Origin: an uncultured Gammaproteobacteria bacterium
GTDB lineage: Bacteria > Patescibacteriota > Microgenomatia > UBA10105 > UBA927
Assembly (NCBI GenBank): GCA_964445435.1
Contig: CAYUKU010000001.1
Coordinates: forward strand, 183,751-247,750
Direction of reading: 5' to 3'
DNA length: 64,000 nt
Below are positions 4,406 to 47,790 of the stretch, one piece after another. Below the pieces are notes generated by a model that made no database searches, was not told the DNA's origin, and saw only the letters and a list, made by a program, of their open reading frames with translations. Every line of letters starts with the position of its first letter. Position 1 is the first letter of the stretch. The position numbers and the translations under genes are program-made.

Positions 4406-6379
4406 ATGCGGATGCTTCACGTATTGTACTCGAGAGTCTGGGTATTCTTCGGAGGCTTGTTTGCGCTTGTCCTTTTGGGCGACATACGACAGGGAGTCAT
4501 CGATGTTGTGAGTCTTGCGTTCGTGCTCTCGTTATTTTTGGTTGGAGCTCTGACGAAAGCATCGTACCTATCTCCACCCAAAAAGCTCCACTGGGCGTGG
4601 ATCGTTTTTATCGCCTTTCTTTTCGGAGGATTTTTGACGTCCGATAGCCCGGGGTACTCGGTGACCGCAATCGTGCGCTACTGCATGGCGTACCTGGTTT
4701 TTGGGTATTTTGCGTATGCAAAGGAAGAGATAGAAGCAGCGAAATTTCTCAAGGGGCTTCTCTGGTTTGCATTTATTTCCGTAGGGTTGTCATTTGTGAC
4801 ACTTGCACATAGAGATTTGGGCGGATTTTTACCGGGCATGAATCTCCTCTACCCTGCGTACGGACACAACCACGTGGTAAACATCGTGGTATTCATTTTT
4901 CCTTTTGTAGTCCACGAACTTATTGTTTCACGCAATATCGCAACAGTCGTGGCGATGACATATCTTACCGTGGCGCTTGTGTTGTCCCGCGCCCGAGGAG
5001 GCCTTATTCTTCTTTCCTTCTATTGTGGATGGTTATTTGCCAGCGTGCGCCGGCGCTTCGGTCCGGCGACGCAGATAGGTGCAACGACCGCATTGGTTGT
5101 ATTCGTCGGATTCGTTATATTTTCTCGATTTTCTGCTCCCGCAACCAAAAGCGGTCTTGCTGAGAGCAGGCTTCCCTACTGGAAGCAGGCGGGCGTGGCT
5201 ATAGCCACCCGTCCGCTTTTCGGATATGGCCCAGGGACATTCTATCTGGTGTCAAGAAGGTTCCAAGAAATTCCCGGCACACACTCGTGGTATGCGCACA
5301 GCTTCCTTCTGCAGACGCTTGCGGAGGTAGGGATTATAGGAGCTTTGGGAGTAGGATTTATTTTGGGTTACCCACTCGTTGCGATTGCCAGATCAATGGC
5401 AAAACTGAAGCGGAAGGATCCGCTCATCGTCCCCTTGTGGCACGCAGTTATTCTTGTGTTTTTGTACAGTTTGGTTGAAATGAACTTGGATTTTCTCGTG
5501 ATATGGTTTCTATTCTGGGCGACACTTGGTTTTATCCATCGGCACGCACGCGGCGATCTTGCTGACGGGATTCCCGTCCCTTTGAATGGCTTTTTCAAGA
5601 CACTTTGCGTCCTGTTGGCTCTTTTTTATCTCTCAGCGGTCGCGTCTACAGCAGTTGAGGTTATAGGGAAAGACCATACGTTTTCGTTCTTGTTGCAGCC
5701 ACACGTAACCGGCAAAGCGCTTACGTATCTTTCCCAAAAAAGCCAGGCCCAGCAATATTCTATAGGATTGCCGGAGCGCACAATTAAGTTTTTTCACAAA
5801 AATGATCCGGAAATAGCATTCAGCATGGCGGCATACGCGTCGCAATCAGGAGTCATGAAGTCCCTCCCGTATCTGTTGCAGGCTACAGATGGCGATCCTC
5901 TCAATCAGGAGTATCTTACCGCTTCTCTGGATGGGTTAGTGCGTAGTCTTCCCCAAAAAGACATCGGAATTTTGACACTACGCATGATGGCGCGGGCACC
6001 CAGAATAACGACACAGAGCAAGCTGTTTGAAATGCCCGGCATTGAAGACGATATCGGCAGAGCGCTTGTTTCCGCGTATGAGAAAGGCAAGCCGCGATGG
6101 AGCCAGTGGTACGCAGGGCTTGCGTATGTCCTGGCCATGAACGCACTGTCGGACAATCCGAAGCTCGCCGAGCAGCTCTTGTTATATGCTAGGGATGTGT
6201 ATCCGGACTTGGGTTTTATACATATGGATTTAATCCGTTTTTATGAGAGCACGCTTGGTGATCACGACGCCGCAGCGGAGGCGGCGCGGTACTGTGGCTT
6301 TTTGAATTCTCCCAAAAAACAATGTGAAGTTGAAGATAAAACACTTCCTCCTGGTGATTTCCTGTATTTGTTTATATAA
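4406..6379 (+). CDS. Wzy_C (O-antigen ligase / PglL-like) polytopic membrane protein with a roughly 230-aa C-terminal soluble extension.
   Basis: Multi-TM N-terminal two-thirds. LSRARGGLILL and HSFLLQTLAEVGIIGALG motifs (H-x-x-F/L...E-x-G) are characteristic of the Wzy_C domain. Confidence 0.65.
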   Translation: MRMLHVLYSRVWVFFGGLFALVLLGDIRQGVIDVVSLAFVLSLFLVGALTKASYLSPPKKLHWAWIVFIAFLFGGFLTSDSPGYSVTAIVRYCMAYLVFGYFAYAKEEIEAAKFLKGLLWFAFISVGLSFVTLAHRDLGGFLPGMNLLYPAYGHNHVVNIVVFIFPFVVHELIVSRNIATVVAMTYLTVALVLSRARGGLILLSFYCGWLFASVRRRFGPATQIGATTALVVFVGFVIFSRFSAPATKSGLAESRLPYWKQAGVAIATRPLFGYGPGTFYLVSRRFQEIPGTHSWYAHSFLLQTLAEVGIIGALGVGFILGYPLVAIARSMAKLKRKDPLIVPLWHAVILVFLYSLVEMNLDFLVIWFLFWATLGFIHRHARGDLADGIPVPLNGFFKTLCVLLALFYLSAVASTAVEVIGKDHTFSFLLQPHVTGKALTYLSQKSQAQQYSIGLPERTIKFFHKNDPEIAFSMAAYASQSGVMKSLPYLLQATDGDPLNQEYLTASLDGLVRSLPQKDIGILTLRMMARAPRITTQSKLFEMPGIEDDIGRALVSAYEKGKPRWSQWYAGLAYVLAMNALSDNPKLAEQLLLYARDVYPDLGFIHMDLIRFYESTLGDHDAAAEAARYCGFLNSPKKQCEVEDKTLPPGDFLYLFI

Positions 6380-6397
6380 TGTGATCTCACACGTTGT

Positions 6398-7243
6398 ATG
6401 ATTACGATCATTGATCGGTGGAAACAACTTGCTGCCAGGCGGTTATCAAAGACATTCCTCACGCGGACCGATGTCATCATTCTTCTGTGCATCGTCATGC
6501 TTTTGGGCGTTATGGGTGTTGCGGTGAAGCTTGTGCTTCAGAAAGATACGTATGTGACTGTTGAGCTTCTGGCTTCCGGCGGAGAGTGGTGGTGGGGCGT
6601 CCCGCCTCCCTATTATTGGAATGCCCGTGATATAGTCATCGGCGCAAAGGAATATGACTCGTTTCGCAAGGTGACCTCAGAGGTTGTTGACTTGGTTAAA
6701 TACGGCGAGGACGACCGGAGATTCATGTGGCTTGAGGTAAGGCTTCTGGCGAAGAAAAACATGTTGACAAAAACATATTCGTTTAAGCAGGAAACCCTCC
6801 AGATCGGGAAAACCATTCACCTATCGCCAAATAATGTTGCCATCATCGGACAGATTGTGGGTATCGAAGGCGTTGGGAGAATGTGGAAGACCGAGTATGT
6901 TGAGGTGCAGGGGAAAGTCCGTCATATAGAGCCTTGGGAGGCAGATGCAATTAAACCGGCAGACAAAGTTTTTGATAACAAGGGGCAACTGGTTGCTGAG
7001 ATACAGGAGGTACGCGTGGAAAACTCTGACGTTATGACCACCACATGGACCGGTGACACACTTGTGCGGAAGAATCCTCTTCTTCGTGATGTGACCACAA
7101 AAATGAAGCTCCGCGTTATGAAGGATGATAGTATGCGCTACTTCAATTTCTATCAGCCAGTTGAGATAGGAAACAATATTCGAATTCAGTTCCCAGAGAC
7201 GGCAATTGAATTCAATATTATGTCTATAACGCCCGCAAACTAG
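6398..7243 (+). CDS. Hypothetical membrane-anchored protein (one N-terminal TM, extracytoplasmic domain).
   Basis: Long ORF in an operonic position. TM segment ILLCIVMLLGVMGVAV. No recognisable motifs. Confidence 0.4.
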   Translation: MITIIDRWKQLAARRLSKTFLTRTDVIILLCIVMLLGVMGVAVKLVLQKDTYVTVELLASGGEWWWGVPPPYYWNARDIVIGAKEYDSFRKVTSEVVDLVKYGEDDRRFMWLEVRLLAKKNMLTKTYSFKQETLQIGKTIHLSPNNVAIIGQIVGIEGVGRMWKTEYVEVQGKVRHIEPWEADAIKPADKVFDNKGQLVAEIQEVRVENSDVMTTTWTGDTLVRKNPLLRDVTTKMKLRVMKDDSMRYFNFYQPVEIGNNIRIQFPETAIEFNIMSITPAN

Positions 7244-8025
7244 CTCATTTTTTGAGCGATGACCCATACGCTCCACGGCGCTTGTGCGGGTTTACGCATA
7301 GAGTATGCCAAATTTCCCCAGTGAACGATCCGAAAACCAGCCAGTGAAGTGAACGCTTCAAGTTCAGGAAAGAAAAAATACCTCATGGTGTGAGTTTCGC
7401 GAAGCTTCCTCGTCTGGCCGGTTGCCGGACGGATGGTAAGCGTGTGATGCACGTCAACCGTATTAGTCGCGTGAGAGAGTTTTGGAATTTTCTGTCGAAA
7501 CACCTCTAACTGATCATTTTTGTAATGCTGCCGGACAACCCGCGGTTTTCCCAAAAAAACACCCGGTCCGTACCAGCAGTCAAATATAAAAACACCGTGC
7601 GGCTTGAGAATAGAAGCGGCTCTGCGGAAGAATTGTTCAACCTCGCGGTTTGTTTTCATGTAGCTAAGGACGTCGAAGAGAGAAACCGCCACGTCATATG
7701 TTTTTGGTGTTTTGTATGAGAGAAAGTCTCCGGTTATATACGCTATGTCTGCGGAGGCGTCGGCCGCTTTCTTTTTGGCCACTTCAAGCATTTGGGTTGA
7801 CTGATCAATCCCTGTTATCTTGGCTCCCTGTTTCCATAATTCGAGCGTGTATGCTCCCGTGCCGCACCCAATGTCAAACACTGAAATGTCGGTCCGCTTC
7901 GGGAGAAGCGCTTTGGCGTGATGGAAAATCATGCGCGTGGTTTCTTCAATCCCGCGCTTTTCGTACATAAGGTCGTAGTATGGAGCAGTCAGTGAAAACG
8001 GAAGTACGGAATGTTTTGATTTCAT
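7240..8025 (-). CDS. Class I SAM-dependent methyltransferase.
   Basis: VFDIGCGTGAYT motif I, acidic motif II and LKPHGVFIFD post-I motifs. ATGA overlap with the upstream GT4 gene. Confidence 0.8.
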   Translation of the reverse strand: MKSKHSVLPFSLTAPYYDLMYEKRGIEETTRMIFHHAKALLPKRTDISVFDIGCGTGAYTLELWKQGAKITGIDQSTQMLEVAKKKAADASADIAYITGDFLSYKTPKTYDVAVSLFDVLSYMKTNREVEQFFRRAASILKPHGVFIFDCWYGPGVFLGKPRVVRQHYKNDQLEVFRQKIPKLSHATNTVDVHHTLTIRPATGQTRKLRETHTMRYFFFPELEAFTSLAGFRIVHWGNLAYSMRKPAQAPWSVWVIAQKMS

Positions 8026-9206
8026 ACGTTACAGCAGTGCTGGGCAGTTTGTATAAGAAGTTTGCTTGTGGCGTCCCAGCTAAAGCGAGAAACGACATAC
8101 TCACGTGCGCGTTTTTTCATGGTTCGTTTTTCCTCTTCTGGAAGCGAGAAAAAATGTCCGATGCGCCTGCTTGCGCCCGCGGGGTCTGTCGGATGGATAT
8201 AAAAACCGGTAACCCCGTTGACGATTTCGCTATCATCTCCGCGACTTCGTATTACCGGGACGCCTGAGGCTTGCGCCTCGAGGACAGAAAGACTCGCTGT
8301 CGATCCTCCCGCGCTTGTCGTTGATCCTGTGTAGACGAAAAGGTCGAGAGATTGGTAATACGCGGGCAGTCGTGTTTCGTCTATGTTGCCAACGAAGCGT
8401 ACAGTGTCTGAGAGACCGTGGGATTGTATATAGGACATATACTGACGTTTGACATGCAGGTCCGTAATGCTTTCTGAAATGTGAACTACAAATTTTTGTC
8501 GCCCCTTTTTCAGTATATTTATTATTTTTAGAAAGTTTTCCGTTCCTTTGAAAATAGTATAGTCAGTGCTGTGTCCGATGACCGGGATTTTTCCAGGGTG
8601 CCTCGTGCGGGCGGGTCGGGGGAAAAATGAGTCCGTGTCAACGCCGTTGGGCAGATATGCGTTTGGTTTGCGGCCGTACGTTTCGAGAATATATTTCTGG
8701 ACCGAAGGAGTAAGGGCGGTAAGAACCGTAGCCCTATGATATGCCCATATATCAAGCCATGAGTACGCCCATTTGGCGACGCGGACGCAAAATTGGGAAA
8801 AGGGAGACAAGGAGGCTATGCGCAAGGGGTCGTAGAAAATAGCGAGCGGCTCGAAGCAGTGACATATGGTGCGGCCAGAGACGAGCACTGCCAGAAGGTT
8901 CATGGGAAAATTCGTAGCAAAGACGATTTGGTTTCTGTCAATGCTCCGCTTCAACTCAAAAAAATTCACGATAAGCGTAAGAGGGAGAAGGAGCCAGAAA
9001 AATCGGGGCGGCCTCCAAAGCACCGAAATTTTCACGCCTGCCTTCTTGTAGAGGCGTTGCCATTTCGGACTTATGGCGTGCAGATACAAAAAAACACGAT
9101 GCGTCCTGGCAACCCGAAGAAGGAGTTCATACAGATACTTCTCCCCTCCCCTGGAATAGAGGCTTTCTGTGTGAAGGACGTAGACATCAAATGCGCCCCG
9201 TCTCAT
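8022..9206 (-). CDS. Glycosyltransferase family 4 (GT-B, GT1 clan).
   Basis: EAQASGVPVIRSRGDDSEIV (E-x7-E-type donor-binding motif). Size 394 aa. Confidence 0.8.
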   Translation of the reverse strand: MRRGAFDVYVLHTESLYSRGGEKYLYELLLRVARTHRVFLYLHAISPKWQRLYKKAGVKISVLWRPPRFFWLLLPLTLIVNFFELKRSIDRNQIVFATNFPMNLLAVLVSGRTICHCFEPLAIFYDPLRIASLSPFSQFCVRVAKWAYSWLDIWAYHRATVLTALTPSVQKYILETYGRKPNAYLPNGVDTDSFFPRPARTRHPGKIPVIGHSTDYTIFKGTENFLKIINILKKGRQKFVVHISESITDLHVKRQYMSYIQSHGLSDTVRFVGNIDETRLPAYYQSLDLFVYTGSTTSAGGSTASLSVLEAQASGVPVIRSRGDDSEIVNGVTGFYIHPTDPAGASRRIGHFFSLPEEEKRTMKKRAREYVVSRFSWDATSKLLIQTAQHCCNV

Positions 9207-9982
9207 AGTTTGGTAAGTGTGCCGATGTGTTTGGCGACACGGGAAGCAATGGCGACAAGCACGCTCCCCGCGAAAAGATACACGATGCTCAGAAGAAGCG
9301 CGTTTAGCTGGCCTTGAGTGAAAATTTGGGAACCGGGAGAGTATTGCCGAATTGCCTCAAAAACGTAGGAGGAGGGCGTCAAAAACGACATGGCGTACAG
9401 CGGTTGAGGGAGTGCTGCGCGATTATAAAAGACGAGTGAGACGATCTGGACGACGGTGCTAAGCATCCAGCCCGAAAAGCTTGCACGTTCTCCGAACAAA
9501 AAAACTAATGCTATAGCAACAAGCGAGAGGGAGACGCCAAAGAGTTCAAGTTGAAAGACCCACAGAAGCGCATGAAAACCAAGCGTTGAGAAAAAAGCGG
9601 GAAACACAGCGCGTAAAATAAGCATTAGCGCGACAAGAGACAGTATAATTTTTGTCATGGATGCTGCGGTAGTGGCGAGGATGAGTTGTCCAAGCGATAT
9701 GGGCGCAAGAAGCAAATTTTGTATGTTTTTGGACGTAACGTCGTCGATAAACTGAGCCACGGATTCCTGGATAATGCGGGCAGTACAGTTCCAGTAGACA
9801 ATGCCGGTAAGGATAACGAGCGTGATGTTTGTGGCTTGTGAGGAGCCGGCCGCTTCAGAGGAAGCAAGAAGGCCGAACAAGAGCGCCTCAAAAGATGGCC
9901 ATATAAGAATTTCAATGATTCTCGCAGGGTTGCGTCGCATTGAGTAGAGGTAGTGGATATAGAGTCCCTTCAGGCGTCTCAT
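9203..9982 (-). CDS. ABC-2 type polysaccharide/teichoic-acid exporter permease (Wzm/TagG-like).
   Basis: Six-TM profile, ABC-2-like size of 259 aa, overlaps the downstream ATPase gene in an operonic arrangement. Confidence 0.7.
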   Translation of the reverse strand: MRRLKGLYIHYLYSMRRNPARIIEILIWPSFEALLFGLLASSEAAGSSQATNITLVILTGIVYWNCTARIIQESVAQFIDDVTSKNIQNLLLAPISLGQLILATTAASMTKIILSLVALMLILRAVFPAFFSTLGFHALLWVFQLELFGVSLSLVAIALVFLFGERASFSGWMLSTVVQIVSLVFYNRAALPQPLYAMSFLTPSSYVFEAIRQYSPGSQIFTQGQLNALLLSIVYLFAGSVLVAIASRVAKHIGTLTKL

Positions 9983-9987: not shown

Positions 9988-10674
9988 CTATGTACGGAAA
10001 AATTTTCGTGCTGCCGATTCGGTTATGGGTCTGCCGTCATATACGATGGATCCCTGATTGAGGATAATCATTCGCGAGCACATAGATCCGATTTCTTCGA
10101 GATTTTGGGAGATTAGAAGGGTTGCTTTGTTTTTTGTATTGCGCTTGATGAGATATCGTCGTACACGCTGCGCAAGTGCGGGATCCATATGAGCGGTAAT
10201 TTCATCGAGGAAGAGAATTTTGGGATTATTGAGAAGGGCTTTTGATAAATTGACAAAAGAGTTTTCACCTGACGAAAGCCGGTAAACCTTTTTTTGAAGA
10301 ATGGCATCAGGCATTTGGAGGTCCGTCCAGAGCGTTGTGATAAATGCTTGCCAACGGTCAACTTCGTATAAATCCGCGTACGTTGCGAGATTTTCCCAGA
10401 CACTCGCGTAACCGCTCAAACGTTGACTTGAAGATGCGTAATTCATGCTTCTGGCGATTCTGCGTCTGGCTGTTTCTTCCACGGGTACCCCGAAAAACGA
10501 AAGCGTGCCGGAGTCAGGCGAAAGAAGCCCCGTTGCGATATGGAAAAGTGTGGACTTTCCCGCGCCAACCGGTCCGGTAATCCCGACGATTTCTCCTGCG
10601 CCAACGAAAAGTGATAGATTTGATACAATACGTTTTCCGCCGAGCGTTTTGTCTATGGAAGCAATGGTTAGCAT
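9988..10674 (-). CDS. ABC transporter ATP-binding protein (Wzt/TagH-like, short form without a C-terminal carbohydrate-binding domain).
   Basis: Walker A GPVGAGKST, signature LSSGE, Walker B ILFLDE. Confidence 0.85.
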   Translation of the reverse strand: MLTIASIDKTLGGKRIVSNLSLFVGAGEIVGITGPVGAGKSTLFHIATGLLSPDSGTLSFFGVPVEETARRRIARSMNYASSSQRLSGYASVWENLATYADLYEVDRWQAFITTLWTDLQMPDAILQKKVYRLSSGENSFVNLSKALLNNPKILFLDEITAHMDPALAQRVRRYLIKRNTKNKATLLISQNLEEIGSMCSRMIILNQGSIVYDGRPITESAARKFFRT

Positions 10675-13983: not shown

Positions 13984-14990
13984 GGCAGAGTTTTGAGATT
14001 GCAGGGTATGAGCTTTTGTTCCGTCAGATAATTGTACATATAGTTTGCGTATTCTCTGTGTCCGAGAGCGTTCGGGTGTCCGTCTGGATGCATGTTACCC
14101 GACGCAGAGATATCCGGAATTTTGAAGGTGACAAACGTATTTGGTCTTTCTAATGCGTGGACTTTGATTCGCGCTTTGTATTCAGATCCGATATTCGGAA
14201 GCACCATAAATATAAGCGTCCCACTGTAAGAAGCGGTAAATTCCTGCAAAATGAGGCGTTCCTGCTCCAAAATTTGCGTCGGAGAGTATTTGGCCATGAT
14301 TTCTTTGGTCGCTTTCGTCCACTCTGGCGAATAGTCTCCGGCTTTTTTAGCGACATGCTTTTCTTCTTCCGACATGGTGCGTTCAAGTTTGGCGATTACT
14401 GGAAGCGCAAGTTCGTTTATGCGGTCGCCAAGAAGGAACCATATAACCAAATCCGGCTGATATTTCACTCCCCGCTTGAGAAAGCGTTCTGAGGAGTATT
14501 GCATGTCATATCCGTATACGCCGAGATTAATGACCTCTATACGAGTTTGATCCTCGCATGATTTGCTGAACATATCTTCCAGTTGTTCGGGCCAGTTATC
14601 GGCGGTGTTAACAAACTGCCCGAACGTAAACGAATCTCCGAGTGTAATAATTCGAAATGTCGTAGGTGGTTTTTCCACGTCGTAATCAAACCTCTCATTT
14701 AACGAGTCTTTGTTGAGAGTGTATTTCGCATCATCCAGGAGCCACTCCGCTCTCTCTGTTTGCACCGTGTCGGCTGCCGGCTCATAGAAATACTTCAATT
14801 TAGAGCCCTGGGGAAATATGAGGAAATTCTTGTTTATCCGCGTAACAGGCACAGATTCACCGAGGAATTTTTCCGTTCGTCTCTTTATGATTAACGCATA
14901 TCCGACGAGTCCGAATATGCAAATTTCCGTGATAAGGACGCAAAGAGCAATGATCTTCGTGATCGGAGAGAGCACGGTATGATGATTCAT
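13980..14990 (-). CDS. Membrane-anchored SGNH/GDSL-family hydrolase (candidate glycan O-acyl transferase or esterase).
   Basis: N-terminal TM. IITLGDSFTFGQFV GDS(L)-block I. Later GxND-like and DGHPN (block V D-x-x-H-like) motifs. Confidence 0.6.
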   Translation of the reverse strand: MNHHTVLSPITKIIALCVLITEICIFGLVGYALIIKRRTEKFLGESVPVTRINKNFLIFPQGSKLKYFYEPAADTVQTERAEWLLDDAKYTLNKDSLNERFDYDVEKPPTTFRIITLGDSFTFGQFVNTADNWPEQLEDMFSKSCEDQTRIEVINLGVYGYDMQYSSERFLKRGVKYQPDLVIWFLLGDRINELALPVIAKLERTMSEEEKHVAKKAGDYSPEWTKATKEIMAKYSPTQILEQERLILQEFTASYSGTLIFMVLPNIGSEYKARIKVHALERPNTFVTFKIPDISASGNMHPDGHPNALGHREYANYMYNYLTEQKLIPCNLKTLP

Positions 14991-17272: not shown

Positions 17273-17309
17273 ATTCTAAGTATCGTAGATCAACAAAAGA
17301 AAGCAAGGG

Positions 17310-18128: not shown

Positions 18129-18262
18129 AACCCCTATGATCGAAATGGCGACATATCGTCCTCACCAGGTACTTATCAATAGATGGGCAGCGATACAAGA
18201 GAGAAAAAAAGGGAGGACGCCATACGATACATTTGGTACGACAGTGAATAGTTCGTACTGTT

Positions 18263-24468: not shown

Positions 24469-24520
24469 AATCCGAAGCGATCATACCACGGAATTTGGTA
24501 GAATACGCGAGATTATCTTT

Positions 24521-26574: not shown

Positions 26575-26677
26575 ATTGAGATACTGCGCATGTTTGGAAG
26601 AAGTTTACTACACTACGACATCATGCTACAATCAGCCAAACATGTTTTTTGAACTTCCTTAATCCCCTATTTCTTAC

Positions 26678-30040: not shown

Positions 30041-30053
30041 CCTAGGTGTTTGT

Positions 30054-33894: not shown

Positions 33895-33916
33895 GGATGC
33901 TTCTTAGCCTATTCAG

Positions 33917-35056: not shown

Positions 35057-35111
35057 ATTGATAGCGCGACGAGATTAAGCTTATCACAGCATATTCTTCA
35101 AGACAATGCGT

Positions 35112-36921: not shown

Positions 36922-36927
36922 AGGAAT

Positions 36928-37734: not shown

Positions 37735-37745
37735 CTATCTTCACT

Positions 37746-38345
37746 ATGTCTACTTTTGTATACACGTCTTTTATCTGTTTTCTGTTTCTACTTTCGCTGC
37801 CGCTCCAGATCGTCATCGCGTTTCTGCTGGTTGCGACGTCCGGACGACCCGTTCTGTTTATGCAGAGGCGGATCGGAAAAGATGCTAAGCCATTTACGCT
37901 CTATAAGTTCCGGACGATGAAACGGGGCGCGCACAGAGAGCAGCCACAACTGATGCGGCGCAATGAGGCCGACGGCCCTGTGTTTAAAATTCATAACGAT
38001 CCCCGCTTCACGCGGGTAGGTCGCTTTCTGGCGCACACAGGACTCGATGAATTGCCGCAGTTGTACAATGTGCTTCTTGGTGATATGGCCCTGTTTGGCC
38101 CCCGTCCTCTTCCGGTTGCGGAAGCCGCCAGGTTGAAAGGTTGGCAACGGAAACGACACGCTATCAAACCCGGCATTATCTCTCCGTGGATCGTCAACGG
38201 CTACCATGCACAGTCATTTGACGCGTGGATGAAAAGCGATATCGCGTACATTCAGAAAAAGTCGCCATGGCATGATCTTGTGCTGGCTGTCCGGACGATG
38301 AAGCTTCTAGCCCGGCTTCTTCTCAGGGAAGTTGCAAAAACATAG
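37746..38345 (+). CDS. Small bacterial sugar transferase: an initiating polyprenyl-phosphate hexose-1-phosphate transferase (PglC/WbaP C-terminal-domain type).
   Basis: RPVLFMQRRIGKDAKPFTLYKFRTM, DELPQLYNVLLGDMALFGPRPL and PGIISPW blocks are diagnostic of the monotopic PGT family. One N-terminal re-entrant helix. Confidence 0.85.
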   Translation: MSTFVYTSFICFLFLLSLPLQIVIAFLLVATSGRPVLFMQRRIGKDAKPFTLYKFRTMKRGAHREQPQLMRRNEADGPVFKIHNDPRFTRVGRFLAHTGLDELPQLYNVLLGDMALFGPRPLPVAEAARLKGWQRKRHAIKPGIISPWIVNGYHAQSFDAWMKSDIAYIQKKSPWHDLVLAVRTMKLLARLLLREVAKT

Positions 38346-38384: not shown

Positions 38385-38882
38385 ATGGCAGTTCATCCTG
38401 AACGATCACTGCGAAAGCTTACCGTACCCATGCGGCGGGCAATCCGTACCCATATCCCCCGCGAAACACGGCAAACTCTTGCGAAAGTCGCCCGTATTGC
38501 CCGCACGGGTGTCATATTTGCTTCGGTCGTAACAGCTGCAGGAGCGGCAGCGTATGACTACATTGCACATGCCCGTGGGCAGGACGGATTAACCCAGGGG
38601 TATGCCTGGGGAGCAGTGGCGCGGGATAACTGTATCGAGGCTGCTTGGATCGCGTCGCATCGAGTGGACCCGGATGAATCGGTACGTCTTCATGTGCGTT
38701 CGTATGTTGAAGACGCCTTTCAAGAAGGAGTTGTGGCTGATCTTTCCGGCTTGCCCCTCCAAGCCGGTCACGCGGAGTTTTGCTTTGAAGAAGGCGAGCT
38801 TCCCCGCGCCCGGGTGATTTTCCAGGCGGAAAACGGTGGCGTCAAAGGTCAGGAGCAGCGCTACGAGGTAGAAAATCCGTGA
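38385..38882 (+). CDS. Hypothetical protein with one TM segment, GC-rich.
   Basis: ORF with TM GVIFASVVTAAGAAAY. No motif recognised. Confidence 0.35.
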   Translation: MAVHPERSLRKLTVPMRRAIRTHIPRETRQTLAKVARIARTGVIFASVVTAAGAAAYDYIAHARGQDGLTQGYAWGAVARDNCIEAAWIASHRVDPDESVRLHVRSYVEDAFQEGVVADLSGLPLQAGHAEFCFEEGELPRARVIFQAENGGVKGQEQRYEVENP

Positions 38883-38974
38883 TACATGCCTGTTGACAAG
38901 AGAGAACGAAGAGTGGTACCAATGATATGGTCTGATATTGACAAGCTGTATAGTAGTTGATACTATAGGTTTGT

Positions 38975-40999
38975 ATGCCTGCTTCAGCGGAAACGGAAAC
39001 ACAAGGAGATCAGCCAGCTTCAGAATCGGGACTCGGTGAGCCCCAGATTCTTGACTTCAATACAATACTCAGTGAAGCAGTTTTAGAGCGATTTGAGGAG
39101 CAAGTTCATCGACTCGCCCGCGATCACGGGTATTTCTACGACAAGCCGGATGGCAATCCATATTCCCCTACCCGTATTTACGAAATGACGCAAAAAATAG
39201 GCGTTGGCGCACTTACCTCAAGCGGAAGCGTTGAAGTGATCGTGCCACAATTGGAACTTCGCCACAAACGGAATGCGGACCAGATATTTGCGCCTCAAGC
39301 GATAGCACGGGAGTTCGGAATCAAAGCAACGAGGCTCAAGGCAATTCAAAAATTTCTTGAGGATGGAACACTTTCTCCCCAGGAGGCGTTTAAGCTTGCC
39401 GGTAATCAGGATCCAAAAGCCGCTCTTGAAACCCACCAGGATGAATGGCAGGCGTGGGTAACGAGTACGCGCGAAGTACAGGCGCGGCAACAGCCGGTTG
39501 TGGCAGGTGATCGGGTTTCGGTTGGAGACGTTGAAATTATCATGGACGAGCAGGAAGCGCAAGATCGACCCTCACGCAAACGAGCTTCGCGTCTGTCCCG
39601 CGCGACGGCGCCGATCAGACGCCGGGTTATTCTTGCCGCTGTGGGAGGATTGACCATACTGGGCATGCTTCTGTCTGCCTGTTCGCCAAGGGGCGGCACC
39701 GGGGATATTCCAACGCAGCCACCCTCCTCTACCCCTGCAGGAGAACTGTTTACGCCCGATGCGCCGACAGCCGTTTCAACGGCGACTGTCAAGCCCACGG
39801 AACCGCCGACTCCAGCGCCATTTAGCGGAGCCACGGAAGCTGCTCCCACACAATCTGCCGTGTACGGGCCGCCGAATCTCGAACGTTCCGTCCGTTTGGC
39901 CGGATCCGGCGGAAGTGGGCGTAATGAAATTCTTACCAAAGCGGGTATCGATGAAGCGACGCTCGTTTCGTACGAAAATGCCGCCTACTCGTGGGCCGCG
40001 AATAACGGATATACCAAAAATCAGGTGAATATCGAATATCTCTTTGACGGACAGTCCTGGAATATGGTGCTCCGGGAGGTTTCATCCGGAAACTACATCT
40101 GGTCAGAAGACGGCGAGGGCGCCCTGATGACCTATCCCACCATTATAAGAGTTGACGCCCAGGGGCCGCACGCCGATCCAGAGATGGGAGCAAGAGTGTT
40201 GGAAGGAACAAAAGACGCCAAAGCGATGCTGGTCAACGGATTTGTGGTCGTCGTTCGCGGATCGGTGCAGATCGCCGGGAAAACATACTACACCGAGTGG
40301 TTTAATACGGTCACCGGCGAGTGGCAGCCGATCGCAGAGGTTCAGGCGGCCATCGTAGCCTCAGCGCCGGAATTTACACATGGTCTTGCACCCGATTTTG
40401 AATCGGCGATTGTGGTTAGGGAGTCGGATATTCCCGCCATTATCGCAAGCCTGAGGGCGGGCCCATCGCTGATTGATCCGGGTGCTCAGCCGACGAGATT
40501 TGCGGGCAGGGAGGGGGAATTGTCCGCGACGCCGAACGGATTAACAGAGCAGCTAAATATACCAGTGGGTACAGGTGATCTTGCTAATGTTGCGGTTGCC
40601 GCAACGATAAGAGTTGATTCAATGATGGGAGATTCGCAAGGATCTAAACTTATATTAATTTTGGAGGTAAAAAACGACACTTCCATGGGTCATGAGTCAA
40701 GAGGGTATATTAGGGTATATATAGGGGGTGCGGTTGCTGATCAAACTGTGTTCCCGACTGACGCAGCAACTAAACTTCAGGTAATAAGAAAAACTATAGG
40801 AGATGGCCTTATATGGCAACTTTTGGCCGGAACAAAAAGTTCGTTTTATGATGGTTCGTTCGTCAAGCAATTGTTTAACCAAAAAGGTTCAGTAACCGGC
40901 ACGTCGCTTCGTGATCTGTTGCTAAAGTGGAAAAATGAAGGGGTTGTTCCTTCTGAATTGGAAGACATGCTCATACCAATGTCAGGCGTTGGTTCCTAA
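38975..40999 (+). CDS. Hypothetical 674-aa bitopic surface protein. It has a roughly 215-aa cytoplasmic N-domain, one TM, a Pro/Thr-rich linker and a large extracytoplasmic domain.
   Basis: TM RRVILAAVGGLTILGMLLSAC followed by PTQPPSSTPAGELFTPDAPTAVSTATVKPTEPPTPAP linker. Consistent codon usage over 2 kb. Confidence 0.5.
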   Translation: MPASAETETQGDQPASESGLGEPQILDFNTILSEAVLERFEEQVHRLARDHGYFYDKPDGNPYSPTRIYEMTQKIGVGALTSSGSVEVIVPQLELRHKRNADQIFAPQAIAREFGIKATRLKAIQKFLEDGTLSPQEAFKLAGNQDPKAALETHQDEWQAWVTSTREVQARQQPVVAGDRVSVGDVEIIMDEQEAQDRPSRKRASRLSRATAPIRRRVILAAVGGLTILGMLLSACSPRGGTGDIPTQPPSSTPAGELFTPDAPTAVSTATVKPTEPPTPAPFSGATEAAPTQSAVYGPPNLERSVRLAGSGGSGRNEILTKAGIDEATLVSYENAAYSWAANNGYTKNQVNIEYLFDGQSWNMVLREVSSGNYIWSEDGEGALMTYPTIIRVDAQGPHADPEMGARVLEGTKDAKAMLVNGFVVVVRGSVQIAGKTYYTEWFNTVTGEWQPIAEVQAAIVASAPEFTHGLAPDFESAIVVRESDIPAIIASLRAGPSLIDPGAQPTRFAGREGELSATPNGLTEQLNIPVGTGDLANVAVAATIRVDSMMGDSQGSKLILILEVKNDTSMGHESRGYIRVYIGGAVADQTVFPTDAATKLQVIRKTIGDGLIWQLLAGTKSSFYDGSFVKQLFNQKGSVTGTSLRDLLLKWKNEGVVPSELEDMLIPMSGVGS

Positions 41000-41013
41000 A
41001 GTTATCCCACTTA

Positions 41014-41655
41014 TTGTCATTGACAATATTGTATAATAGTTTTGTGAACCGTAACTGGTGGTTTGTTGGTCTTCTTGTTTCCATAGTTGTGTTATTGCCT
41101 CTCTTAGGCTTATGGTGGTATCGTGGATATTTTTCTTCGGAGTTAGAGCCCGAAAAACTACGATTTCGTATCGATGCTGCCTTTGAAAATGCGTACCGCC
41201 AGAATGATCCTTATGCGATTTGGTTCAATCGGGTGGTATTTAAAAACGGCGATAAATTTGCATGGCGACCACCGCGAATTCTTGCAACTCATATTCCTAC
41301 CACTTATGAAGTTTCCGGATATGAATTTTATGGCGTTGTGACAAGATGGCGTCCGGATGTGAAATTGCTTCATATAAACACCTATATAGGTAAACCCCTG
41401 ACAGTTCGTTTTGATCCAGACTCTGATAGATCCATAGCTATTATTCCTAAGCTTGATGCTTACGGGAAAATTATTGGATCAAACATATTACCAGTTGTCC
41501 AGTCAATGTATGTGCCCGATTGGAATACACTTTTTTGTGAAAGCGACATTGTTTCTATAAAGGTGAGGTCGAAATTTTCGATAATGTTTGGTCGACCTGA
41601 TAATCCACTTATTCCAGTTAATATAGTATTAACGCAACGTCTTTGTCAGGTATGA
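41014..41655 (+). CDS. Hypothetical membrane-anchored protein (N-terminal TM plus beta-rich domain).
   Basis: TM WWFVGLLVSIVVLLPLLGLWWY. Overlaps the next gene by 13 nt in an operonic arrangement. Confidence 0.45.
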   Translation: MSLTILYNSFVNRNWWFVGLLVSIVVLLPLLGLWWYRGYFSSELEPEKLRFRIDAAFENAYRQNDPYAIWFNRVVFKNGDKFAWRPPRILATHIPTTYEVSGYEFYGVVTRWRPDVKLLHINTYIGKPLTVRFDPDSDRSIAIIPKLDAYGKIIGSNILPVVQSMYVPDWNTLFCESDIVSIKVRSKFSIMFGRPDNPLIPVNIVLTQRLCQV

Positions 41656-43229
41656 GACTCTGGACACCATTAATGGCCTTTCTTTTTGTCGTAATTACAT
41701 CTTGGTTTACGCCGGTTTTTGCTCAATATCCTACAACGCCAACACCAACCGGAGCGCCAAAAACGTGTTGTCAGAATTTGGACTGCGGGAGCTGTCCGGG
41801 GGATCCAAACAAAACATACGTTATGTGTCAGACATGCCCATCGTGGTGGAGCTGTGGAGATGGTGATTGTGGTTCTGGAGATAATGGCGGGGGCGGTTGT
41901 TATACAATCACAAATTGTAACGCATGTCATCCAACGAAATGTACGCCAACATGCGGTCTGGGAGGGTGTCCCGGTGGATGCGGAAACGTTGATGATTGTG
42001 GTGGTGTAGACTGCGCGGCCTGTCCAGGCGGCGGAGGTGGAGGCGGCGGTGGTGGAGGATGTGGAGATGGGACATGTGGTGCGGGAGAAACTTGTTCTAG
42101 TTGTCCAAATGATTGCGGCTTATGTCCTTCTGGTAACGCTCGTGCGCGGGGACACATTATTGCCTCAACTGTCACCACATGCGCGCAGGTCAGAGCGAGC
42201 ACCAATTACCTCGCCGAAACCCTTACACTTACGAACGCGTTACCCGCGTCTCAAAACATTTCAGGCGGTACATACGCTCAGTGGAATAATCTCGTGCCGA
42301 ACGCACACACGCTCTCCGACATTCCCCCTGCGGGGTATGTGCTTAAGCTTGCCTGCTGGCAGACGGACACGCCCGCAGCGCAGGGAACCGGCATGACTGC
42401 CGATGTGCCGACCGGCGGGACGCTTACCTGGAATTTGGGATATACCAACGGAACTGCCTGGATGCAGACACGGGGCGGTGATGTGTATGCCGCTATGGGT
42501 TTGTCATCTCCCATTCCCGTAGGGGCAAGTCCACGGTATGGACTTCTTGATGGCGGGAGCGGATTGCCCGGTGTTGCGACGTACGGGGTTTCGTATGATT
42601 TTGACAGTGATACCGGCAGTCTCGGCGAATCATATGTTTCCTCAACCGGCTGGCTTGCAAACGAGACGTACGCCGCCACGGATTTCTACGCACTTATGTA
42701 CCAGCGGTTTGATTCGCCGGCAGCTGATTATTCCGGGCCGACGACATTTACTTCCCAATTGGCAAGCGGGACATACTTCGTCGACGGTGATCTCACTATC
42801 GGCACAAACCCGTGGAATGTAGGAAGCGGGACGAGCATCGTTGTGCTCGTCAACGGCAATCTGACCATTAACCAAACGATTAATCTATCGGGTACCGGAT
42901 TCGTCGCTTTCATCGTCAATGGCAATATCACCGTCAGTCCGAACGTTGGGGTTGTCAACACGTCATCGGCGCCAGCACTGGAGGGAGTCTATATCACCTC
43001 CCCCACCGGCACCTTTACGACGGGCGCTTCCACAACTGCCGGGTCGGAGCGGTTTGTAGGTAGAGGTATTTTTGTCGCGGGAGACTTCAGTCTCACACGG
43101 GATCTGGATAGTTATGGCGTAAACAACACGACGTCTTCCGAGCTGTTTATCTACAATCCCCGGCTCCTTATCACGATGCCGGATGAAATGCGTGATCTTC
43201 CCGTGACCTGGCAGGAAGTCGCTCCGTAA
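41643..43229 (+). CDS. Secreted Cys-rich/Gly-rich protein with a beta-helix-like C-terminal domain, rich in N-x-S/T sequons.
   Basis: Signal peptide MSGMRLWTPLMAFLFVVITSWFTPVFAQ. About 40 Cys in 150 aa including CGDGTCGAGETCSSCPNDCGLCP-type repeats. (Gly)11 run. Repetitive VNGNLTINQTINLSGTGFVAFIVNGNITVSPNVG beta-strand pattern. Many NxT/NxS motifs (NGT, NET, NLT, NQT, NLS, NIT, NTS, NNTT). Confidence 0.55.
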   Translation: MSGMRLWTPLMAFLFVVITSWFTPVFAQYPTTPTPTGAPKTCCQNLDCGSCPGDPNKTYVMCQTCPSWWSCGDGDCGSGDNGGGGCYTITNCNACHPTKCTPTCGLGGCPGGCGNVDDCGGVDCAACPGGGGGGGGGGGCGDGTCGAGETCSSCPNDCGLCPSGNARARGHIIASTVTTCAQVRASTNYLAETLTLTNALPASQNISGGTYAQWNNLVPNAHTLSDIPPAGYVLKLACWQTDTPAAQGTGMTADVPTGGTLTWNLGYTNGTAWMQTRGGDVYAAMGLSSPIPVGASPRYGLLDGGSGLPGVATYGVSYDFDSDTGSLGESYVSSTGWLANETYAATDFYALMYQRFDSPAADYSGPTTFTSQLASGTYFVDGDLTIGTNPWNVGSGTSIVVLVNGNLTINQTINLSGTGFVAFIVNGNITVSPNVGVVNTSSAPALEGVYITSPTGTFTTGASTTAGSERFVGRGIFVAGDFSLTRDLDSYGVNNTTSSELFIYNPRLLITMPDEMRDLPVTWQEVAP

Positions 43230-43247: not shown

Positions 43248-44561
43248 ATGCGCCGTTTCCTCGTTGATGGTATTCTTTTTGCGGTTGTTCTTATCCTCTC
43301 CATCACAATGCTTGTCCCACAGCTCAAGCGGCATATGTTTTTCATCGATGAATACGAATTCATGCGCAAAAGCTATCTTTTCGATGTGTATTTTCTGAAA
43401 CAGAACCTGGGCGATCCGCGGTGGACCGATGCGGCGCTTGAGTCCGATGCGCCGCAGCCAAAGGTGGGGCCGTATATCTTCGGGCTTGCGCTTCATCTGT
43501 CCGGAGTTCGTGATATCGAAACTGCCTTCAGGCAAAGCGGGTTTTCGACGATTCAGGTCGATGGCCATCCGTGGTGGGAAGCGCTCTGGACGAAGGAGCC
43601 CTCGAAATTTCCCGACTCACTCGCACAGAGCTTCTCGTATATACTCATCGGCCGGCGTGCAGCGGCTGTGTTTAGCATCGCGTCGATACTTTTTGTCTTC
43701 CTTTTGGGTACGACGCTCCATAGCTCCGTATTGGGATTTATCGCGGCAATCCTGTTTCTTGTGAATCCCCTTTTTCGCCTCGAGGCGGGGTTTGCCATGA
43801 CTGATACCATGCAGCTTGCGTTTCTCCTTCTTACCGTTCTTCTTCTTGTATATTGGCGGGGGGCGTGGCAAAAAAAGAGCTATCCCTGGCTTCTGACTCT
43901 CAGTGTCGGCATTGGTCTTGCCGCATCACTCGCCGCGGGCGTAAAAGTGACGGGGATGCTTGCCATGTTGTTTGTGGGTATGCATCAGGTATATACATAC
44001 GCCCGGGAAGAGATGACGGCGGCGCTGAGGCGTATGCTCGTTCTTTCGACGGCAACCATGGTTGTTGTGTTTTGGAGCGTTTTTTATGCACTTCATCCGT
44101 ATATTCATACCGATACGTTCCGACAACTGCGCTACATGTATCAGGCGAGGATGAACGTCTCCCAGACGCTGTATGCGCAAACATATCCACACACGTATAT
44201 TCCCACCAGGACCCAAGCTCTCCGATACGTGCTTATGAGAACCATGTTGCCTTACTCGCTTTATGGGAATTTCTCCCATTCCTGGATTCCGTGGGACATG
44301 ATGCTTGTTGTAGGCGGGAGTTTGGTATTGATAAACGATGTGTTCGCGCGCTGGAAGAAAAGAGGGGCGCTGCCAAGGCTTGCGATTTTGCCGCTATGGA
44401 TTTCCTTTACGGCAGTTTCTCTCGTATGGTATCTCTCCCATGACTGGTCGCGGTACTATCTGCCGGTCGCTTCGGGGATCACGATTCTTGAGGCCTACAT
44501 GATTACGTATCTTTTCTTCCGGTTCGGCGGGGGCGTCCTGTATGATAGACTTCCCAAGTGA
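43248..44561 (+). CDS. GT-C-like polytopic membrane protein (candidate lipid-linked-sugar glycosyltransferase).
   Basis: About 11 TM segments. N-terminal loop FFIDEYEFMRKSYLF D-E motif. Confidence 0.5.
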   Translation: MRRFLVDGILFAVVLILSITMLVPQLKRHMFFIDEYEFMRKSYLFDVYFLKQNLGDPRWTDAALESDAPQPKVGPYIFGLALHLSGVRDIETAFRQSGFSTIQVDGHPWWEALWTKEPSKFPDSLAQSFSYILIGRRAAAVFSIASILFVFLLGTTLHSSVLGFIAAILFLVNPLFRLEAGFAMTDTMQLAFLLLTVLLLVYWRGAWQKKSYPWLLTLSVGIGLAASLAAGVKVTGMLAMLFVGMHQVYTYAREEMTAALRRMLVLSTATMVVVFWSVFYALHPYIHTDTFRQLRYMYQARMNVSQTLYAQTYPHTYIPTRTQALRYVLMRTMLPYSLYGNFSHSWIPWDMMLVVGGSLVLINDVFARWKKRGALPRLAILPLWISFTAVSLVWYLSHDWSRYYLPVASGITILEAYMITYLFFRFGGGVLYDRLPK

Positions 44562-44580: not shown

Positions 44581-44718
44581 ATGGTGAAGCGAGTGTATCA
44601 GCCCAAAAAAGGAAAGCGCGTGCGGACGCACGGATTCCGAACGCGCATGAAGACACATTCCGGCCGCAAAGTCCTCAAAAGACGCCGAGCCACGGGACGA
44701 GGACGCCTCACGGTATAA
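44581..44718 (+). CDS. rpmH: 50S ribosomal protein L34.
   Basis: Translates to [45 protein letters not shown], near-identical to bacterial bL34. Not in the ORF track because it is shorter than 60 aa. Confidence 0.9.
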
Positions 44719-44725
44719 TGCATCC

Positions 44726-46583: not shown

Positions 46584-46599
46584 TCCCCTATACTGTTAG

Positions 46600-47790
46600 T
46601 TGATGCATCGATGGATTTTTTCCCTTCTCATCTTTCTGTTACCCGTGCAGCTTGGATACCATACCTGGCCGTCATGGTCGATGGTTCTCGGAAGAAGAGT
46701 TGACTATCTCTCTCCCACCCTCCATCTTACTGACATACTAATTTTTTTCCTCCTTATTTCTTGGGGTGTCGATGTGCTGAGACATCGAAGGAAGGTCGCG
46801 AAATCGTTCATTTTTGGATTTATCGGGATTGTGATAGCCGCGTTTATAAACGTGCGGCTGGCGGTAAACCCCATGGCAGCCTTCTGCGCATGGGTGAAAG
46901 TGTTGGAATTTGCGTTTCTGGGGTGCTACATATATACGACAAGACCTGAGCGCAGGAGAATACTTTTTCTTCTATCATGGTCAGTTTTATATTCGTCACT
47001 CGTTGCCATCGGGCAATTTCTTCTGCAGAAATCCGTTGGCGGACCGTTGTGGTTGCTGGGGGAAAGAACATTTACCCTCGATACACCCGGAATTGCGCGG
47101 GCGGATTTCGCAGGACGTGAAATATTGCGGGCATACGGGACGTTCCCCCACCCCAATGTTTTGGGCGGATTTCTGGCGATAACACTTCCGATGATTCTGG
47201 GAGGAATTCAAAAGCGAGCCTCGAACATGGGTCGCGAATTTTACGGATTGGTCATGACGCTTGGAGTAATTGCGCTCATACTCACACTCAGCAGAAGCGC
47301 AATCACACTGTTTGCGGTTGTAGTAAGCTGGCAGTTGTGGAAAATGAAAAAAGCGTTTTTTTTCCTCCCACTTCTTATGCTAATTACACTCCCCTATCTT
47401 TGGACGGACGAATCGTTCGTCGTACGAAACCAGTTGAATGATGCAGCCATACAAATGGTTCTTTCGCATCCCGTCTTCGGTGTGGGATTGGGGAATTTTC
47501 TCGTGGAACTTCCCACGTATCTTCCAACTCGAACTATTTACTTCCTGCAGCCGGTTCACAATATCTATCTTCTTCTTTTATCCGAGGTTGGTGCTCTTGG
47601 GGTCATGGGAATTTTCTGGATACTGTGGCGTATACGAAAACATATTGAGTTTTCCGTGGCGCTTGGGACAATTGCCATTCTCGGACTGGTGGATCACTAT
47701 TTCCTCACGCTTCAGCAGGGACAACTGCTTTTGACGATAGTGTTTACGCTCTCCTTGCGCGCGAAGAAGACGAAGGCGCTACAAGTCTAA
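46600..47790 (+). CDS. Wzy_C (O-antigen ligase-like) polytopic membrane protein.
   Basis: LTLSRSAITLFAVV and VHNIYLLLLSEVGALGVMG Wzy_C motifs. About 10 TM segments. Confidence 0.7.
   Translation: MMHRWIFSLLIFLLPVQLGYHTWPSWSMVLGRRVDYLSPTLHLTDILIFFLLISWGVDVLRHRRKVAKSFIFGFIGIVIAAFINVRLAVNPMAAFCAWVKVLEFAFLGCYIYTTRPERRRILFLLSWSVLYSSLVAIGQFLLQKSVGGPLWLLGERTFTLDTPGIARADFAGREILRAYGTFPHPNVLGGFLAITLPMILGGIQKRASNMGREFYGLVMTLGVIALILTLSRSAITLFAVVVSWQLWKMKKAFFFLPLLMLITLPYLWTDESFVVRNQLNDAAIQMVLSHPVFGVGLGNFLVELPTYLPTRTIYFLQPVHNIYLLLLSEVGALGVMGIFWILWRIRKHIEFSVALGTIAILGLVDHYFLTLQQGQLLLTIVFTLSLRAKKTKALQV

Follow-up and report, generated by a model that had tools for sequence, protein, structure and literature searches.

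Three remotely related Wzy_C proteins in and behind a putative envelope-glycan island next to dnaA of a Gottesmanbacteria-like genome

Three Wzy_C proteins at the edges of a glycan island

The stretch of DNA analysed here (the window, 64,000 nucleotides of contig CAYUKU010000001.1) encodes three proteins with a Wzy_C domain, referred to as WzyC1, WzyC2 and WzyC3, which an initial annotation had tentatively placed in a protein glycosylation system transferring a lipid-linked oligosaccharide to neighbouring envelope proteins. The window opens within dnaA, which is followed by an envelope-glycan island of about 44 kb, by rpmH-rnpA-yidC-jag and by housekeeping genes. WzyC1 and WzyC2 are encoded near the dnaA end of the island, and the gene for WzyC3 stands behind jag and is followed by an RNase H gene, a Wzx-type flippase gene, the gene for a DUF4012 protein and the housekeeping genes (Table 1). 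According to the named Wzy_C homologues returned by a homologue search, the closest relatives are Gottesmanbacteria/Microgenomates, and judged by its sequence the window is an origin-proximal region of a Gottesmanbacteria-like genome of the Microgenomates, a group within the Candidate Phyla Radiation (CPR).

A Pfam scan of the 58 plausible open reading frames (ORFs) of the window placed all three proteins above the gathering score of 31.7 for Wzy_C (PF04932), in agreement with the initial annotation. The three families are mutually remote, with hhalign probabilities of 97-98% at 18-22% identity (97% and 18% between the families of WzyC2 and WzyC1), and on this comparison we regard the proteins as remote paralogues. 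Each has an invariant Arg/Arg/His set, and the sets align with one another (R197/R255/H298 in WzyC1, R234/R307/H360 in WzyC2 and R232/R276/H320 in WzyC3). The reference triads are R215/R288/H338 in Escherichia coli WaaL and R224/R298/H349 in PglL (PMC3643930), and by position the residues of the Wzy_C proteins correspond to those that WaaL requires and PglL conserves.

The fold of WzyC1 is predicted to be WaaL-like. With the AlphaFold2 model of WzyC1 (mean pLDDT 87), the WaaL of C. metallidurans (7tpg) was the top match in the Protein Data Bank (PDB) and the only significant one obtained by Foldseek (E 3.9e-4, TMt 0.60); the TPR domains of MamA, CTPR and OGT came next. The family profile of WzyC1, as the only one of the three, also reached 7tpg (E 3e-6) and, in addition, consensus TPR proteins (E 2e-7). 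Model and hydropathy indicate twelve core helices and a 13th helix at aa 395-419; because of this 13-helix topology the TPR domain would be located on the outer face, on the side of the catalytic loop, and the near-invariant residues C630 and C640 of the family alignment are consistent with such a placement. The large C-terminal soluble domain described initially is thus TPR-like and, by helix count, extracytoplasmic; with about 235 aa it has no counterpart in WzyC2 or WzyC3.

PDB searches with the single sequences of the three Wzy_C proteins gave no match. Firm clustering with WaaL ligases of lipopolysaccharide (LPS) producers, which the initial annotation had named as an observation that would speak against its proposal, was not seen: in hhalign, E. 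coli K-12 WaaL scored below 1% probability with each of the three profiles, a comparison that is uninformative. The families PglL_A (PF15864) and Wzy_C_2 (PF11846) were absent from all three proteins even at E<=10; this absence is not decisive, since TfpO and TfpM also lack both (PMC12645811). The families of dedicated polymerases (O-ag_pol_Wzy, EpsG and WzyE) gave no match at E<=10, and NCBIfam provided no family for the Wzy_C or GT-C-like proteins of the window, nor for its Wzx, DUF4012, RGP and DUF4330 proteins. A literature search combining CPR and O-antigen ligase found nothing.

The initial annotation had also pointed out that a lipid A-core context is missing, and this was borne out, as no Lpx/Waa-type family was matched among the ORFs scanned. 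CPR bacteria, to which the relatives named above belong, have been reported to lack a Gram-negative envelope, as seen by microscopy, and to lack PilQ (PMC6744442; see also PMC8871954). On account of such a host and of the missing Lpx/Waa families, a lipid A-core acceptor is set aside, and a role as LPS ligase is excluded for the Wzy_C proteins of this organism.

Table 1. Features of the window. Positions are those of the window; GT, glycosyltransferase; TM, transmembrane helix.
Feature	Position	Strand	Evidence and remarks
DnaA, N-terminus	1-447	-	5' end ~447; left edge of window
PQQ-propeller/DUF5060 protein, signal-anchored	575-3385
RGP/GT75-family protein	3388-4398	+	Pfam RGP 163.9 bits, E 7.6e-48, full length; directly 5' of WzyC1
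WzyC1, 657 aa	4406-6379	+	Wzy_C 57.2 bits (aa 184-315); WaaL-like polytopic core aa 1-420, C-terminal TPR aa ~424-657 (nt ~5675-6379)
DUF4330-like single-pass membrane protein	6398-7243	+	26.7 bits, below gathering score 27.6; TM aa 26-42; directly 3' of WzyC1
S-adenosylmethionine (SAM) methyltransferase	7240-8025	-	operon-like run with ABC pair A; order kept in L002, L084
GT4 glycosyltransferase	8022-9206	-	operon-like run with ABC pair A; order kept in L002, L084
ABC exporter pair A, ABC-2-like permease	9203-9982	-	ABC2_membrane 23.4 bits, below gathering score 26.9
ABC exporter pair A, ATPase	9988-10674	-	ABC_tran 89 bits
WzyC2, 454 aa	10673-12037	+	Wzy_C 55.6 bits (46.8 bits on longer ORF from 10445)
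WecG/TagA-family GT (second sugar of linkage unit)	14987-15721	-	Pfam 156.6 bits; TIGR00696 119 bits, cut-off 69
UbiA prenyltransferase	32815-33894
Radical-SAM/SPASM protein	33917-35056
ABC exporter pair B, ATPase	36187-36921	-	ABC_tran 75.6 bits
ABC exporter pair B, ABC-2 permease	36928-37734	-	ABC2_membrane 57.9 bits
Small phosphoglycosyl transferase, initiating enzyme	37746-38345	+	PF02397 170 bits; Bac_transf catalytic domain only; partial NCBIfam EPS_sugtrans and WbaP-type matches
Single-pass membrane protein, 674 aa	38975-40999	+	no Pfam match; TM aa 218-234, then P/T/S-rich linker, up to 17/30 residues S/T/P
Secreted Cys/Gly-rich protein, beta-helix-like domain	41643-43229	+	DUF7305 40.2 bits
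PMT-like GT-C membrane GT	43248-44561	+	Pfam PMT 27.4 bits, gathering score 22.7; 18 nt downstream of DUF7305 gene
rpmH	44582-44719	+	followed by rnpA, yidC, jag
WzyC3, 396 aa, core Microgenomates gene	46600-47790	+	Wzy_C 35.4 bits; probable ATG 46603; directly after jag; 2863 database matches
Wzx/MOP-type flippase (Polysacc_synt)	48184-49413	-	PF01943 58 bits; near WzyC3
DUF4012 protein	49537-52086	+	PF13196 98.9 bits; conserved partner of WzyC3/Wzx block
Single-pass membrane protein, 299 aa	56150-57049	-	no Pfam match; TM aa 60-76; 24% S+T, 11% P; up to 23/30 residues S/T/P

Neighbourhoods of the Wzy_C genes

The surroundings of WzyC1 were compared in 57 loci from a metagenome scan pooled with three earlier loci, 19 of which contain a full-length homologue with core and TPR. 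The persistent neighbours of these 19 are WecG (10/19), RGP (8/19) and DUF4330 (7/19); the ABC exporter and WzyC2 accompany WzyC1 in the closest subclade only (two of the 19 loci, and the window), and a Wzx homologue within 10 kb was found in none. In the relatives with a WzyC1 of 39-44% identity (L002 and L084), the order is dnaN-dnaA, (PQQ), RGP, WzyC1, DUF4330, methyltransferase, GT4, ABC exporter, WzyC2, GT2, GT2, epimerase, WecG and a PMT_2-like GT-C protein, and distant homologues (27-32% identity) are still located beside dnaA together with WecG and GT2s, in one case also with RGP. The RGP gene lies upstream of WzyC1 in L002 (8953-9993), L083 (9018-10004) and L084 (2739-3722) as well. 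The RGP (reversibly glycosylated polypeptide) family is that of the plant UDP-arabinopyranose mutases, and its adjacency suggests a furanose donor for the polymer of the WzyC1 cluster.

For WzyC2, 29 homologues with 36-97% identity were obtained, and the start at 10673 is backed by homologues that span 98-99% of the 454-aa query. The gene lies beside the ABC exporter in four close contexts, including L002 and L084, where exporter pair A is arranged as in the window. The WzyC2 gene (+, 10673) and the ATPase gene (-, 10674) are divergent and their start codons overlap head to head by 2 nt at 10672-10674, which leaves no intergenic promoter region between them; the same overlap occurs in L084 (10001/10002). 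A role of the adjacent methyltransferase in adding a chain-terminating cap that is read by the ABC ATPase was considered and left as speculation, both ATPases of the window being short (228 and 244 aa) with matches to the nucleotide-binding domain only.

A collection with one genome per species yielded 182 confirmed WzyC3 matches, among Gottesman-, Woese-, Ames-, Beckwith-, Roizman- and Levybacteria and WWE3. Its neighbourhood was counted within a radius of 10 kb around the best 80 of these 182 matches, smaller denominators referring to loci with enough flanking sequence: yidC was present in 54/60, RNase H in 52/61, DUF4012 in 51/61, L25 in 51/61 and a Wzx-type flippase in 59/80. This amounts to a fixed block yidC-jag-WzyC3-RNaseH/Wzx-DUF4012-L25, of which the related locus L085 is an example, and DUF4012 itself has been described as enriched in CPR and Gram-positive bacteria and linked to a capsular/exopolysaccharide cluster (PMC6744442). 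Among 28 WzyC3 sequences from several Microgenomates classes, the mean column identity is 48% and 72 columns are invariant, many of them in external loops. As the protein is so unusually conserved, we argue for an invariant substrate; WzyC3 would be a housekeeping enzyme and neither a strain-variable polymerase of the O-antigen type nor linked to the variable island. The long N-terminus is supported by the near-invariant F7-W23 segment in 28 homologues; the database copy P0052 (369 aa), which starts 27 aa downstream of this near-invariant N-terminus, appears to be truncated at its start.

The remaining genes of the island are largely those of glycan synthesis. Apart from the enzymes in Table 1, they include two GT2s behind WzyC2, a GDSL protein, two DegT aminotransferases, two GFO oxidoreductases, an FAD enzyme with a weak match to UDP-galactopyranose mutase and further GT1, GT2 and GT4 proteins. 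A phosphoglycosyl transferase, WecG/TagA, about ten cytoplasmic GTs, two ABC exporters, a single Wzx-type flippase and sugar-modifying enzymes are thus present in the locus, and the initial suggestion that the cluster builds a lipid-linked oligosaccharide agrees well with this inventory. Four large polytopic proteins with 7-13 predicted helices (15722-17272, -; 18663-20315, +; 31469-32872, -; 62680-63921, -) gave no match in Pfam or NCBIfam; they probably represent additional GT-C-type transferases with polyprenyl-phosphate sugars as donors, encoded next to the UbiA prenyltransferase and the radical-SAM/SPASM protein, and the L084 homologue of the first one has a weak PMT_2 match. In L083, a distant relative, WecG/TagA and the PQQ beta-propeller/DUF5060 protein, separate genes in the window, are fused into one protein of 1147 aa (14691-18134, -), a fusion that connects the function of the signal-anchored propeller protein with the glycan pathway.

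Further observations concern the layout of the region. In many bacteria, oriC is located between dnaA and rpmH-rnpA-yidC-jag. The glycan island of about 44 kb occupies this interval, and the layout is shared by relatives (L002 and L003 form one contig). The cumulative GC skew rises steadily over the whole window, and a turning point is absent. The middle of the island (~24000-38000) has a G+C content of 0.43-0.45 compared to 0.49-0.55 in the flanks, and its genes are rarely found near WzyC1 or WzyC3 homologues. This is what would be expected if a polysaccharide cassette that varies and is exchanged were flanked by two conserved ends. Many third-party assemblies of metagenome-assembled genomes with the Microgenomates-type yidC-jag-WzyC3 block (L003, L005-L007, L012 and others) are titled 'uncultured Gammaproteobacteria bacterium', which looks like a placeholder or mislabel. 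Behind the DUF4012 gene, a class II aminoacyl-tRNA synthetase-like protein of 371 aa (54376-55491, +), with the tRNA-synt_2 catalytic domain as its only match, is encoded 3 kb from the gene for elongation factor P (EF-P; 58300-58863, -), and it may be an EF-P-modifying paralogue (EpmA/PoxA-like) and not a tRNA synthetase.

Proposed target proteins and a PMT-like transferase

The initial annotation had singled out envelope proteins with low-complexity S/T/P linkers and one protein rich in N-x-S/T motifs as candidate acceptors. Four proteins with little or no annotation are encoded between the phosphoglycosyl transferase and the PMT-like enzyme (38385-43229), among them the 674-aa membrane protein and the DUF7305 protein; the 299-aa protein is encoded further downstream. 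The S/T/P-rich segments in the 674-aa and 299-aa proteins were confirmed (Table 1), with the reservation that in the latter the P-rich N-terminal region precedes the sole TM and is probably cytoplasmic, leaving an S/T/P-rich C-terminal tail. A homologue of the 299-aa protein (63% identical) occupies the same position in L085. The linker TPAPFSGATEAAPTQS of the 674-aa protein (aa ~278-295) is identical in the L085 homologue (1606-4290), the two proteins being only 60% identical over the aligned region; conservation of this degree is unusual in a P/T linker, and the segment might serve as a site of modification or recognition.

The DUF7305 protein is indeed dense in sequons, though less so than claimed. 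Its 11 N-x-S/T sites correspond to 2.08 per 100 aa and five times the window mean of 0.41, and a composition-preserving shuffle predicts 5.6 sites (z = 2.8), so that about half of the excess is due to composition. Moreover, 5/11 sites reside in repeats of a beta-helix-like type (aa 406-439; VNGNLTINQTINLSG, VNGNITVS), and among the homologues (n=15), which are similarly sequon-rich, no more than two sites persist in most. N-linking oligosaccharyltransferases (PglB/STT3) use the N-x-S/T sequon as their signal, and O-linking enzymes of the Wzy_C type do not. As a sign of Wzy_C targets these motifs are therefore mismatched, and STT3/PglB was not matched among the ORFs scanned, nor when the polytopic proteins without a Pfam match were scanned again at E<=10. 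N-glycosylation of this protein was rejected in view of the missing STT3 match, the clustering of sequons in the repeats and the poor conservation of most sites. Type IV pilins were likewise rejected as substrates, no prepilin N-terminal motif being present in any frame of the window and no pilin family being matched by Pfam; an S-layer or SLH protein was not recognised in the window either.

The expected co-variation between Wzy_C genes and proposed targets was not observed. Around WzyC3, the 674-aa protein was found in 1/80 loci, the PMT-like gene in 2/80 and DUF7305 in 13/80 at >=50% query coverage (15/80 at >=30%), and none of the proposed targets was found near the 19 full-length WzyC1 homologues. 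From these comparisons, the S/T/P-rich and sequon-rich proteins appear to be lineage-specific neighbours of the PMT-like enzyme and not demonstrable clients of the Wzy_C proteins, and the specific target proposals are weak.

The membrane glycosyltransferase nearest to the S/T/P-rich proteins is, in fact, the PMT-like GT-C enzyme and not a Wzy_C protein. If these proteins are glycosylated, this enzyme might attach single sugars to Ser/Thr residues of the P/T linkers during secretion, taking them from a polyprenyl-phosphate donor as does actinobacterial Pmt. Such a scenario, which we consider doubtful, could hold whatever the Wzy_C proteins do. It is in keeping with a Pfam PMT score above threshold, with the acidic motif IDEYEF, which follows TM1 in the first external loop and is conserved in L085, and with the position of the gene, codirectional with and close behind that of the DUF7305 protein. 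The gene order is also maintained in relatives: in L085 it is ABC exporter (pair B of the window), phosphoglycosyl transferase, P/T-linker protein, small protein, DUF7305, PMT-like GT-C and rpmH, and L003 keeps at least the phosphoglycosyl transferase, DUF7305 and PMT-like genes in the order of the window. However, the match is partial, covering profile positions 90-243, and the assignment to PMT is marginal, with no match in PDB sequences or NCBIfam; the GT-C fold also serves in the decoration of polysaccharides and lipids, and at least four other, unassigned GT-C-like proteins are encoded in the window.

Possible roles and comparison with known systems

We consider it somewhat probable that the three enzymes act last in two envelope-glycopolymer pathways, outside the cytoplasm, where they would take a glycan from undecaprenyl-pyrophosphate (Und-PP) at the outer face of the membrane and hand it on. 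WzyC1 and WzyC2 would form part of a dnaA-adjacent, vertically inherited cluster (RGP, WzyC1-TPR, DUF4330, methyltransferase, GT4, ABC exporter, WzyC2, two GT2s, WecG/TagA and GT-C proteins). Its polymer would be finished in the cytoplasm before the ABC transporter exports it. Since export by this route needs no polymerase, both may act as ligases onto acceptors other than LPS, which might be a membrane glycolipid, a wall component or possibly, for the TPR-bearing WzyC1, a protein. WzyC3, together with the Wzx-type flippase and the DUF4012 protein, would serve a pathway common to Microgenomates, either as the polymerase of a conserved repeat unit (similar to TuaE, SscD or WzyE), which is our first choice, or as a TacL-like ligase.

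Several points weigh against this assignment. Sequence cannot separate ligases, polymerases and O-oligosaccharyltransferases (O-OTases) within this superfamily of proteins (PMC3643930). The family profiles of WzyC2 and WzyC3 gave no match to solved structures, the WzyC3 model gave none in Foldseek, WaaL included, and the fold of both proteins is thus derived solely from profile homology to WzyC1. As the ABC exporter and WzyC2 are confined to the closest subclade, the conclusion from ABC-dependent export to a ligase does not hold in general for WzyC1, and the occurrence of two ligases in a single cluster is unexplained. Finally, the external TPR domain of WzyC1, an architecture resembling that of PglL, PglS and WsfB, would be better explained by a protein as acceptor or partner.

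This TPR domain is, in our analysis, the only feature that would favour a protein acceptor, and it forms the core of the proposal that at least WzyC1 is an O-OTase that takes the exported glycan from Und-PP and transfers it en bloc to Ser/Thr/Tyr residues of surface proteins, with the TPR holding the substrate; we rate such a system as unlikely. A monoderm-type host without LPS (PMC6744442) and a Wzy_C core equipped with the catalytic His and Arg residues would be suitable for this function. The 13th helix and external TPR recall WsfB and PglL, which are reported to have a C-terminal TPR, and WsaB, reported to have a TPR partner; an ABC-transporter-dependent cluster with a methyltransferase is also found in the slg cluster of Geobacillus stearothermophilus (PMC2943079). 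In PglS and PglL, a large C-terminal periplasmic domain is thought to recognise internal sequons (PMC9829042), and proteins with S/T/P-rich external segments, including the linker identical in L085, are encoded nearby. On the other hand, TPR domains also function in the assembly of enzyme complexes, PglL_A and Wzy_C_2 are absent, and the window is devoid of recognisable pilin, S-layer or SLH proteins. The candidate targets are encoded 32-50 kb away from WzyC1 and WzyC2; they were not found around the 19 full-length WzyC1 homologues and are scarce around WzyC3. In the most specific form of the O-OTase proposal, WzyC1, located beside dnaA with RGP/GT75 and WecG/TagA, would decorate CPR surface proteins with the exported polymer, and WzyC2 might attach the same polymer to lipid or wall; we regard this version as improbable.

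It might also be hypothesized that all three proteins are Wzy-type repeat-unit polymerases for three surface polysaccharides, attachment being left to other factors such as LCP proteins encoded elsewhere. Wzy_C proteins of monoderm bacteria have indeed been annotated as polymerases (TuaE, SscD; PMC11841062), the frequent Wzx-type flippase near WzyC3 is in line with this function, and the glycosyltransferases of the island would suffice for several polymers. However, the only Wzx-type flippase of the window is encoded 36-42 kb from WzyC1 and WzyC2, which instead adjoin an ABC exporter and hence a route without need of a polymerase. Together with the lack of Wzx near any WzyC1 homologue and of matches to dedicated polymerase families, this renders the hypothesis very unlikely for the full set. 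Taken together, roles as polymerase (TuaE/SscD-type) or as ligase to a non-protein acceptor (TacL-type) would fit at least as well as protein glycosylation, which stays in contention as one of three possible roles but gains no preference from the comparisons made here.

Hardly any characterisation exists of the envelope of CPR bacteria, which as episymbionts rely on surface contact with their hosts. Two observations offer handles on the cell coat: a WaaL-like enzyme as a fixed core gene across Microgenomates within the block yidC-jag-WzyC3-Wzx-DUF4012, and one lineage with an ABC-dependent glycan cluster with two putative ligases at the replication origin. Should any of the enzymes turn out to be an O-OTase, en bloc protein O-glycosylation would be extended to the CPR and new enzymes for glycoengineering would become available; in the case of WzyC1, the radiation would thereby gain its first defined protein-glycosylation system. 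As it stands, the region is a well-annotated polysaccharide locus, the interest of which lies mainly in its CPR setting.

For Wzy_C proteins of monoderm bacteria, proposed roles with uneven support comprise the polymerases TuaE and SscD beside a MOP transporter (PMC11841062), the lipoteichoic acid ligase TacL (PMC5727136) and the S-layer O-OTases WsaB and WsfB (PMC2943079). WaaL of C. metallidurans (7TPG) and E. coli shares the Wzy_C domain and the Arg/Arg/His triad with the proteins described here and, in the case of WzyC1, fold and profile similarity, the latter being undetectable for the E. coli protein; it differs in its LPS/lipid A-core setting with waa/lpx genes and in lacking the extra TM and the external TPR of WzyC1. 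WsaB of G. stearothermophilus and WsfB of Paenibacillus alvei are comparable with respect to host and context: both are Wzy_C proteins of monoderm bacteria that are predicted to act as O-OTases downstream of a Wzm/Wzt exporter, in clusters with a methyltransferase and a Bac_transf initiator, and WsfB has a C-terminal TPR as does WzyC1 (PMC2943079). This is a likeness by description and not by sequence, and in contrast to these systems an S-layer gene was not recognised in or near the clusters studied here. PglL, PglS, TfpO and TfpM (PMC3643930, PMC9829042, PMC12645811) share the Wzy_C core and the essential His, and PglL (550-600 aa) and PglS resemble WzyC1 in size and in the presence of a C-terminal external domain. 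Unlike PglL and PglS, WzyC1 has neither PglL_A nor Wzy_C_2, its C-terminal domain being TPR, and the pilin that is adjacent in the case of TfpO, TfpM and PglS has no equivalent in the window.

For WzyC3, the polymerases of Bacillus subtilis teichuronic acid (TuaE) and the Staphylococcus aureus Ssc polysaccharide (SscD) offer a parallel, as they are likewise Wzy_C proteins encoded beside a MOP/Wzx-type transporter (PMC11841062). The tua and ssc operons also contain the initiating transferase and glycosyltransferases, whereas the block of WzyC3 comprises only the flippase, the RNase H gene and DUF4012. TacL (RafX) of the monoderm Streptococcus pneumoniae, which ligates an Und-PP-linked polymer to a non-LPS acceptor after a Wzx-type flippase (PMC5727136), resembles WzyC3 in its size (397 compared to 396 aa), its Wzy_C domain and its flippase neighbour.

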